The translations under genes and the position numbers were made by a program. From Escherichia coli (GTDB lineage Bacteria > Pseudomonadota > Gammaproteobacteria > Enterobacterales > Enterobacteriaceae), in NCBI RefSeq assembly GCF_003334255.1, contig NZ_QOWU01000058.1: a stretch of DNA of 32,432 nt. One strand, written 5' to 3'. The notes beneath the pieces are model-generated. The model was not told where the DNA came from and made no database searches. It saw nothing but the letters and a program-made list of their open reading frames with translations. Shown here in pieces: positions 12,250 to 12,856 of this stretch (positions are counted from its first letter, which is position 1; the number at the start of each line of letters is the position of its first letter).

Positions 12250-12806
12250 CCTCGTGATTTGGGGTACATGGAAAATGGGCGTAGCAAGCCTCAGCTAGAT
12301 AACTAACCGTAATAAAAGGGCTTTTCTGCGAGCAATGTAAGAGAAGGATAACTAGGCAGGTTGCAAGAAAGATAATCGTTTTGATAGATCAGTTTATCGA
12401 TATTGATCGTTAGTGCCGATCGATAAGAAGTGCGGAAACGTTAGACTCACCTCTGTTGCTCCATCATGATGATGGGGCTGTTGGCCCTCGAATCTATCTG
12501 TCTATTAGCATCGGCATGACAAACACCATTTGTTTCCACAACAAAAGACAATAGAAAAGTACATATGTACAAAAAGTGTGATTTATTCTGTCACTTCAGT
12601 ACTTCCTTTCGCCTAAGTTTGCCCGTAATAATTCCCCGTGCAGTACTATTGTTGCGACATAACAACATGAATTACATGGTAATAATAGATGTTTTCCTCT
12701 GCTGGTTCCTGTAAGGATCATGACTCCATACGACATCATTTTTAATTTTATACAGTTCAAAAAATCTACATGTGTCACAAATAATTTTACATTTGATAAT
12801 GTATAG

Positions 12807-12820
12807 TTGTCACATGACAA
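12807..12820. promoter_or_regulatory. Perfect palindrome TTGTCA-CA-TGACAA in the mtnK promoter region (candidate operator)
   Basis: 6-bp arms that are exact reverse complements, centred ~43 bp upstream of the mtnK ATG. A second copy of the TGTCACA core lies at 12773-12779. Confidence 0.3.
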
Positions 12821-12856
12821 GTTGATTATCATTCTGTGTAGACAAGGAGAACTGTT

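Follow-up and report, generated by a model that had tools for sequence, protein, structure and literature searches.

The 32,432 nucleotides of Escherichia coli DNA analyzed here (the window; contig NZ_QOWU01000058.1 of RefSeq assembly GCF_003334255.1) form the terminal part of the leuX island in a strain of extraintestinal pathogenic type. On the plus strand, and continuing through position 17021, lies the E. coli dihydroxyacetone phosphate (DHAP)-shunt operon, mtnK-mtnA-ald2-transporter, in which ald2 encodes a class II aldolase and the fourth gene (16017 to 17021) encodes a GRP-family sugar transporter. It is followed by yjhU (mtnR), the gene for a repressor. In front of mtnK is the palindrome TTGTCAcaTGACAA, whose arms, TTGTCA and TGACAA, are exact reverse complements separated by a CA spacer and whose center is 43.5 nucleotides from the A of the mtnK ATG (12857). 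Based on comparisons with the promoters of orthologous operons, we think it likely that this palindrome is the promoter-proximal half-operator of a bipartite MtnR operator, the partner of which is TTTACATTTGATAA, 21 bp upstream (Table 1).

The identities of the regulators are already known, and what is new here is the specific two-box operator model. Huening et al. (2025), who studied the mtnK promoter in strain ATCC 25922, found that the four genes form one operon, renamed YjhU as MtnR, and reported that it represses the mtnK promoter and that CRP activates it (PMC12632272). lacZ fusions with at least 126 bp of DNA 5' of mtnK were induced 10- to 16-fold by 5-deoxyribose (5dR) versus glucose; the 126-bp fusion (12731 to 12856) was fully MtnR and glucose regulated, and a 66-bp fusion was inactive (PMC12632272). 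Deletion of mtnR raised operon expression by ~5 log2 on glucose, an effect that was complemented and was seen with fusions of at least 126 bp, and it removed almost all 5dR-specific regulation, leaving a difference of 1.35 log2 (PMC12632272). A crp deletion strain did not grow on 5dR, and CRP shifted the promoter fragment in an electrophoretic mobility shift assay (EMSA) as a single dominant complex (PMC12632272); by its primer sequences, this fragment is 12612 to 12865. What has been published, then, is that MtnR represses and CRP activates a promoter lying within the 126 bp 5' of mtnK. In that study the MtnR recognition sequence is called unknown, CAAAT-N-ATTTG is offered as a visual candidate, and TTGTCAcaTGACAA is not mentioned (PMC12632272). 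The first-pass annotation of this DNA, made from the sequence alone, had named YjhU and CRP as candidate regulators, and these are the two published regulators of the promoter (PMC12632272).

That annotation had also reported the palindrome together with a second TGTCACA at 12773 to 12779, inside TGTGTCACA (12771 to 12779) and 35 bp 5' of the copy in the palindrome, and when reread in the window all of these coordinates and distances are correct. The palindrome and the recurrence of TGTCACA, each taken alone, are at chance level. Palindromes of this form (6-bp arms, 2-bp spacer) number 11 in the window, compared with 8.2 ± 2.8 expected from Markov-1 random windows, and in 41% of random 126-mers with the composition of this region (39% G+C) there is a palindrome whose arms are 6 bp or longer and whose spacer is 0 to 6 bp. 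The palindrome pattern, allowing up to 2 mismatches, occurs once (1.73 expected). TGTCACA occurs 7 times on the two strands of the window (5.2 ± 2.2 expected), with three of the seven copies inside 130 bp (12773, 12808, and, on the minus strand, 12896); the copy at 12896 consists of mtnK codons that are also kept in Citrobacter and is probably held by coding constraint. The argument that the palindrome is nonrandom comes from comparative evidence and not from its own statistics.

As a repeated operator unit, TGTCACA was rejected, since across orthologs the upstream copy keeps only TCACA (CGTCACA and CATCACA in Citrobacter, GATCACA in Providencia), and the dyad model would put both copies in opposite arms. 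The repetition that the annotation had read as a motif is coincidental, with TCACA alone conserved at 12773 to 12779. A 17-nucleotide direct repeat (12763 to 12779 and 12798 to 12814, 76% identity) is specific to E. coli.

A scan for MtnK with one genome per species returned 14 loci. By tblastn, mtnK-mtnA-ald2 and a yjhU ortholog are found together in several genera, and synteny of yjhU with mtnK-mtnA-ald2 extends to nine genera, Escherichia among them. The orthologs share 50 to 99% identity with YjhU (Citrobacter, 99%; Providencia, 89%; Vibrio, 78 to 80%; Aliivibrio, 66%; Morganella, 59 to 61%; Chelonobacter oris, 55%; Pseudovibrio exalbescens, 50%), and the recognition helix, SRVTVVKYLQTARE, is the same all the way from E. 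coli to Vibrio and Morganella, so that a common motif is plausible and the pooling of sites across lineages is justified. In Vibrio and Aliivibrio, the regulator gene is divergent from a rbsD/fucU-like gene and an ATP-binding cassette (ABC) transporter that precede mtnK. The GRP-family permease is confined to the operons of Escherichia, Citrobacter, and Providencia; elsewhere its place is taken by a ribose-type ABC transporter, which an RbsD/FucU mutarotase often accompanies.

The promoters were aligned by anchoring on the common pentamer TCACA (E. coli 12775 to 12779). In 12 promoters this gives a gap-free layout of ~55 bp, consisting of TCACA, 6 nucleotides, a first dyad (box 1), a -10-like hexamer, and a second dyad (box 2). 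The box consensus is TTTACA-N2-TGTAAA, with the two centers 21 bp apart, or 20 bp in Vibrio and Aliivibrio. In 12 of 12 lineages the hexamer is 21 to 22 nucleotides 3' of TCACA and matches TATAAT at 4 to 6 of 6 positions (the variants are TATAGT, TATACT, TATAAT, TAGTAT, TAATAT, and TAGATT), and we infer that TATAGT is the functional -10 of the E. coli promoter. Box 1 is almost invariant in the alignment of E. coli, Citrobacter, and Providencia (alignment A1), in which the invariant noncoding columns are TCACA, TTTACA, TTGATAATGTATA, and TT..CA.ATG..AAGT, the TATA of the -10 included. Within the palindrome, the positions invariant in A1 are TTnnCAnATGnnAA (pattern TTnnCAnATGnnAAGT), and the flanking 5' untranslated region (UTR) diverges.

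At the position orthologous to the palindrome, a dyad matching the consensus is found in Citrobacter, Providencia, Xenorhabdus, Morganella, Vibrio, and Aliivibrio. This second dyad is TTGTCATATGACAA in Citrobacter On2M, TTTTCACATGATAA in C. amalonaticus, TTTGCATATGTAAA in Providencia, TTTACATTTGTAAA in M. psychrotolerans, TTTACAAATGTAAA in Aliivibrio, and ATTAC(T/G)TTTGTAAA in Vibrio. The outer TT/AA and inner CA/TG of the palindrome are kept, and arm positions 3 and 4 drift between genera, so that the perfect symmetry of the E. coli element is partly accidental. The first-pass annotation had suggested conservation upstream of mtnK homologs as a check: a second dyad does lie at the same position elsewhere, but perfect symmetry is not kept.

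Box matrices were built leaving out one lineage at a time, and the window (32,419 positions) was scored with a matrix that contained no Escherichia or Citrobacter sites. By this matrix, box 1 is the top match in the window, at 17.5 bits, and the palindrome ranks 44th, at 5.2 bits, a weak match that owes its weight in our argument to its position. The two boxes (12786 and 12807) form the best 20- or 21-bp pair in the window, with 22.7 bits, a value reached in 0 of 60 Markov-1 nulls. In all 14 mtnK operon sequences (the window plus 13 loci) the best such pair is the promoter pair; 0 of 60 nulls do as well in 11 of the sequences, and at most 2 of 60 in the other three.

Two lineages that were not used for the matrix, the alphaproteobacterium Pseudovibrio exalbescens and the Pasteurellaceae member Chelonobacter oris, served as out-of-sample cases. 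In Pseudovibrio, the two best matches in 17 kb are TTTACAATTGTCAT and TTTTCATTTGTATC, which are 20 bp apart and span the yjhU-divergent intergenic edge and the annotated 5' end of the rbsD/fucU gene, and matches 3 and 5 form a second 20-bp pair, 5' of the ABC-mtnK genes. In Chelonobacter, the top match is directly 5' of the ABC-mtnK operon and has a partner 21 bp away. Both Vibrio and Pseudovibrio have a second box pair at the yjhU-divergent promoter. A Proteus yjhU-like gene (60% identity, same recognition helix) has no mtnK nearby and no box pair within 17 kb; lacking the mtnK neighborhood, it was set aside as an uninformative comparison locus.

Table 1. Features of the mtnK promoter region and neighboring genes (window coordinates)
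Feature	Position	Strand	Description
Tentative auxiliary MtnR box AGTACATATGTACA	12558-12571	.	299 bp 5' of ATG; 228 bp 5' of box 1
Candidate CRP site AAAATCTACATGTGTCACAAAT	12761-12782	.	Center 12771.5; contains TGTGTCACA
CAAAT-N8-ATTTG	12778-12795	.	MtnR site suggested by Huening et al.; right arm overlaps box 1
Published P1 start	12785-12789	+	72 bp gives 12785; CRP positions -35.5/-17.5 fit 12789
Box 1, TTTACATTTGATAA	12786-12799	.	Proposed OL half-operator; 21 bp center to center from box 2
-10-like TATAGT	12802-12807	+	Between and overlapping both boxes
Palindrome TTGTCAcaTGACAA (TTGTCACATGACAA; TTGTCA-CA-TGACAA)	12807-12820	.	Proposed promoter-proximal MtnR box 2 (OR half-operator)
Predicted transcription start	12813-12815	+	From conserved -10
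Shine-Dalgarno AAGGAG of mtnK	12844-12849	+	
mtnK	12857-14116	+	First operon gene; TIGR01767, 522 bits
yjhU (mtnR)	17062-18048	-	SorC/DeoR-subfamily repressor; convergent, downstream of operon; proposed binder

A Pfam scan of YjhU gave the sugar-binding domain PF04198 (1.1e-79) and N-terminal helix-turn-helix (HTH) matches at residues 21 to 57; the only families matched were PF04198 and generic HTH families, with no HTH_DeoR or DeoRC. The closest solved homolog is Bacillus subtilis DeoR (8r7y, 1e-41), followed by SorC and LsrR. Against NCBIfam NF053881 (DeoR, Bacillus type), YjhU scores 210 bits, which is below the equivalog cutoff of 420, so that it is a relative of DeoR and not DeoR itself. 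The first-pass annotation had called yjhU a SorC-family regulator, and PF04198 and the B. subtilis DeoR homology agree with this. E. coli DeoR, GlpR, and FucR, with HTH_DeoR plus DeoRC domains (PF08220/PF00455), belong to another fold family than SorC. It is by analogy to these three proteins that Huening et al. class MtnR in the "DeoR family" (PMC12632272). By its sequence, we conclude, MtnR is a member of the SorC family (B. subtilis DeoR type) and not of the strict DeoR family. The operators and oligomeric states of the SorC family differ from those of the strict DeoR family.

SorC repressors are tetramers (dimers of dimers) on two half-operators, and for B. subtilis DeoR only the full 39-bp operator is stably bound (PMC11229326). 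Based on this precedent, we propose that MtnR acts as a tetramer. The two MtnR boxes have the form of a bipartite operator, with two ~14-bp halves whose centers are about two helical turns apart. The DeoR operator, also bound by a tetramer, has two halves of ~14 to 18 bp with centers ~23 bp apart and 39 bp in total. Its right half-operator contains TTTACATATGT (PMC11229326), and this right half, TTTACATATGTTCAA, is near the MtnR box consensus, TTTACATATGTAAA. The two proteins have the same architecture of HTH plus PF04198, and of the DNA-contacting residues of DeoR, R34 is conserved in YjhU and R39 is replaced by K. The effector of DeoR is a phosphorylated pentose of the regulated pathway, as is proposed for MtnR. 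There are also differences: the DeoR left half is TTGAA-N6-TTCAA and the operator lies at -60 to -21, whereas both MtnR boxes are 6-N2-6 dyads with centers 20 to 21 bp apart, which would bracket the -10 and +1 or, if counted from the published start, lie at about -3 to +36. A sequence with the DeoR-like 5-N6-5 geometry, TACAT-N6-ATGTA (12788 to 12803), was rejected as unconserved in Vibrio and Morganella. E. coli LsrR and B. subtilis CggR are likewise tetrameric, are released by phosphorylated metabolites, and have two-part operators, but they are less like YjhU (LsrR, 4.6e-24; CggR, 9e-5), and CggR has a winged-helix domain and direct repeats at +32 to +77.

Taken together, these comparisons suggest a model in which the operator bases, the two-box architecture, the tetramer, the -10, the start site, and the effector are inferred here. 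Two 14-bp dyads would bracket the -10-like TATAGT and, presumably, the start of transcription. A tetramer of MtnR, assembled like B. subtilis DeoR as a dimer of dimers, would cover ~35 bp, 12786 to 12820, TATAGT included, and would deny RNA polymerase access to the promoter. Release of MtnR would be brought about by a phosphorylated 5-deoxypentose intermediate, and activation by cyclic AMP (cAMP)-CRP at the site containing TCACA. The first-pass annotation had pictured the palindrome as the operator of a dimeric regulator overlapping the promoter. The palindrome is indeed in the regulated promoter and has comparative support as an MtnR site, but its partner would be TTTACATTTGATAA, and, going by the family, a tetramer spanning two dyads is a more probable binder than a dimer on one palindrome.

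TCACA, the candidate promoter-proximal CRP half-site (consensus TGTGA-N6-TCACA), is invariant in all lineages, while the left half is TGTTA (4 of 5 positions) in Morganella, TGCTA or TGATA (3 of 5) in Vibrio, and ATCTA (1 of 5) in E. coli. The resemblance of TGTGTCACA to CRP half-sites, pointed out in the annotation, holds for a perfect and conserved right half, but the left half is degenerate in E. coli. The assignment of TCACA as the promoter-proximal half of a CRP site is supported by this conservation. In a rough CRP matrix, which includes two misregistered sites and is of use for ranking only, the candidate site is the second-best match in 12600 to 12860, with 5.9 (61 window positions score at least 5); the two best matches there have centers at 12753.5 and 12771.5, 18 bp apart.

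Huening et al. report the main (P1) start 72 bp upstream of mtnK, with predicted CRP sites at -35.5 (main) and -17.5, and a P2 start for which the text gives 188 bp upstream and a legend 218 bp (PMC12632272). Their two CRP positions agree with our two best matrix matches only when +1 is set at ~12789. The candidate CRP site at 12771.5 corresponds to their -17.5 site (PMC12632272). The -10 implied by the published start is AATAAT (12780 to 12785), which a search of this sequence paired with TTCAAA as a -35. Neither AATAAT nor the CRP candidate at 12743 to 12764 is conserved in C. amalonaticus, in Providencia, or beyond, and the conserved TATAGT does not coincide with the -10 of the published P1 start. 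With a start predicted from TATAGT (12813 to 12815), the CRP site would be centered at -41.5 to -43.5 and +1 would fall inside the palindrome; if true, this start, near 12814, would be ~25 to 29 bp 3' of the published one. A start at 12815 would give a 72-nucleotide product from the Cy5 primer (5' end at 12886), a match to the published "72 bp" that may be coincidence.

In having TCACA 22 nucleotides before the -10 and no good -35, the promoter resembles the class II CRP promoters galP1 and melR, a likeness that would center CRP at about -41.5 or -42.5. It differs in its degenerate left half-site, ATCTA, and the position itself depends on the predicted start. TTTACA (12786 to 12791) was rejected as a -35, the hexamer 17 bp downstream of it in E. 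coli being GTCACA. The 66-bp fusion begins at ~12791 and so keeps TATAGT and the palindrome without TCACA; its inactivity fits a CRP-dependent promoter, and the published model fits equally well. Whichever start is used, the boxes share sequence with either the core promoter or the region transcribed first, which is compatible with repression. Compared with the model of Huening et al., ours has the same promoter, the same two regulators, and MtnR-responsive DNA within the same 126 bp; the difference is that conservation across genera favors the TCACA site, the TATAGT -10, and two TTTACA-N2-TGTAAA boxes. As a tentative proposal, held with rather less than even confidence, the regulated DHAP-shunt promoter would be a class II CRP promoter (TCACA at about -42, TATAGT, start at ~12814) with an MtnR tetramer on boxes that bracket the -10 and +1.

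Several observations weigh against the two-box operator. Both arms of the E. coli palindrome are off consensus at positions 3 and 4, palindromes of this size arise at chance frequency, and 1.3% of AT-rich intergenic positions score as well as the palindrome does with the matrix. The matrix sites were chosen by eye from the anchored alignment, so that bias is avoided only in the leave-one-out and out-of-sample results. The published start puts the palindrome at about +19 to +36 and not across +1, and Huening et al. favor another inverted repeat as the MtnR site (PMC12632272). They also report that efeU is derepressed in the mtnR deletion strain (PMC12632272). In the 540-bp upstream region of K-12 efeU we found no convincing box or pair, the best match being 8.2 bits at ~340 bp upstream; derepression of efeU may be indirect.

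The main rival explanation is that the palindrome is a bystander: MtnR would bind only upstream, at box 1 and/or at CAAAT-N8-ATTTG over the AATAAT -10, and the palindrome would be conserved for some other reason, e.g., as initially transcribed or 5'-UTR sequence, its symmetry being incidental. This is consistent with the 17.5 bits of box 1 compared with 5.2 for the palindrome, with the chance-level frequency of such palindromes, and with the published start and -10, both of which are 5' of the palindrome. However, the other lineages all have a good box at this position, and the pairs are 20 to 21 bp apart in every case, out-of-sample lineages included. CAAAT..ATTTG is unconserved outside Escherichia and Citrobacter (it is absent in Providencia, Morganella, and Vibrio) and was rejected as a conserved operator, and SorC/DeoR repressors need both half-operators for stable binding (PMC11229326). 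We therefore regard binding at upstream sites alone as unlikely.

That the palindrome is a functionless chance feature would agree with the palindrome count, which is about as expected, and with a G+C content of 39%, which favors A/T-rich symmetry. We consider this improbable, as E. coli, Citrobacter, and Providencia all keep TTnnCAnATGnnAAGT next to a 5' UTR that diverges, and as the position of the palindrome is orthologous to that of strong boxes elsewhere.

It is more doubtful still that the palindrome is the site of another protein, such as a nucleoside regulator like CytR or a second CRP. The Providencia version has TTGCA, which is like a CytR half-site (we take the CytR consensus to be GTTGCATT), and the CRP-like pentamers TGTCA and TGACA are present. 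E. coli, however, does not have TTGCA; the rough CRP matrix gives only 0.6 at 12803 to 12824, on which ground the palindrome was rejected as a CRP site; the EMSA showed a single dominant CRP site; and the 5dR difference remaining after mtnR deletion is only 1.35 log2, for which no third regulator is needed. Least credible is a 5'-UTR RNA hairpin (stability or translation) or part of a riboswitch: under the published start the palindrome is transcribed and the minimum-free-energy fold pairs UUGUC with GACAA, but the fold is no better than shuffles (z = -1.07; 30 of 200 shuffles as good), a 2-nucleotide loop is sterically impossible and leaves 5 base pairs, in C. amalonaticus, Providencia, and Vibrio the half-site consensus is retained although complementarity of the arms is lost, and Rfam over 12150 to 12950 gave no match at an E value of ≤1.

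Beyond the two boxes of the proposed operator, the second-best matrix match in the window, at 14.0 bits, is the far-upstream box AGTACATATGTACA, within which is a perfect 12-bp palindrome, GTACATATGTAC. Comparable far-upstream matches are found in Citrobacter On2M (-302), Providencia (-199), and M. psychrotolerans (-387), and the box may be an auxiliary looping operator. It is dispensable for the regulation of the 126- and 255-bp lacZ fusions (PMC12632272). Just 3' of it, at 12578 to 12596, is TGTGA-N9-TCAC (gtgtgatttattctgtcac), which is CRP-like with noncanonical spacing; the EMSA fragment, beginning at 12612, does not include it. A weak third box, TCTACATGTGTCAC (12765 to 12778; 4.6 bits, rank 60), is exactly 21 bp 5' of box 1, overlaps the candidate CRP site, and contains the upstream TGTCAC. 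Only E. coli and Citrobacter On2M have this box, which is lost in C. amalonaticus and Providencia; if it is genuine, competition between MtnR and CRP could arise. Autoregulation of E. coli yjhU was rejected, the best box match in 18041 to 18400 being 6.4 bits.

The operon is placed at the edge of the island. On the 5' side of the 635-bp mtnK leader are a YeeU-family antitoxin gene and a truncated CbtA toxin pseudogene (window 11400 to 12250; L001 9162 to 9718), and this pair is preceded by antirestriction, JAB-domain, DUF987, and Ag43 genes, which are typical island cargo. The mtnK promoter was found in 1,077 of 5,426 complete E. coli genomes.

Most likely, the palindrome is an ordinary operator half, and it reveals no new kind of mechanism. 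Through the DHAP shunt, extraintestinal pathogenic E. coli can use 5'-deoxynucleosides for growth, and a model of its operator names the exact bases to mutate, allows the MtnR regulon to be predicted in other genomes, and flags a probable misplacement of the published -10 and start. It would also be the third architecture among the few operators described for SorC-family repressors. In the tentative reading given above, the MtnR box pair would mark 5'-deoxy-sugar salvage operons from the Enterobacterales and Vibrionales to the Pasteurellaceae and an alphaproteobacterium, and MtnR would have its half-site chemistry in common with the right half-operator of B. subtilis DeoR.

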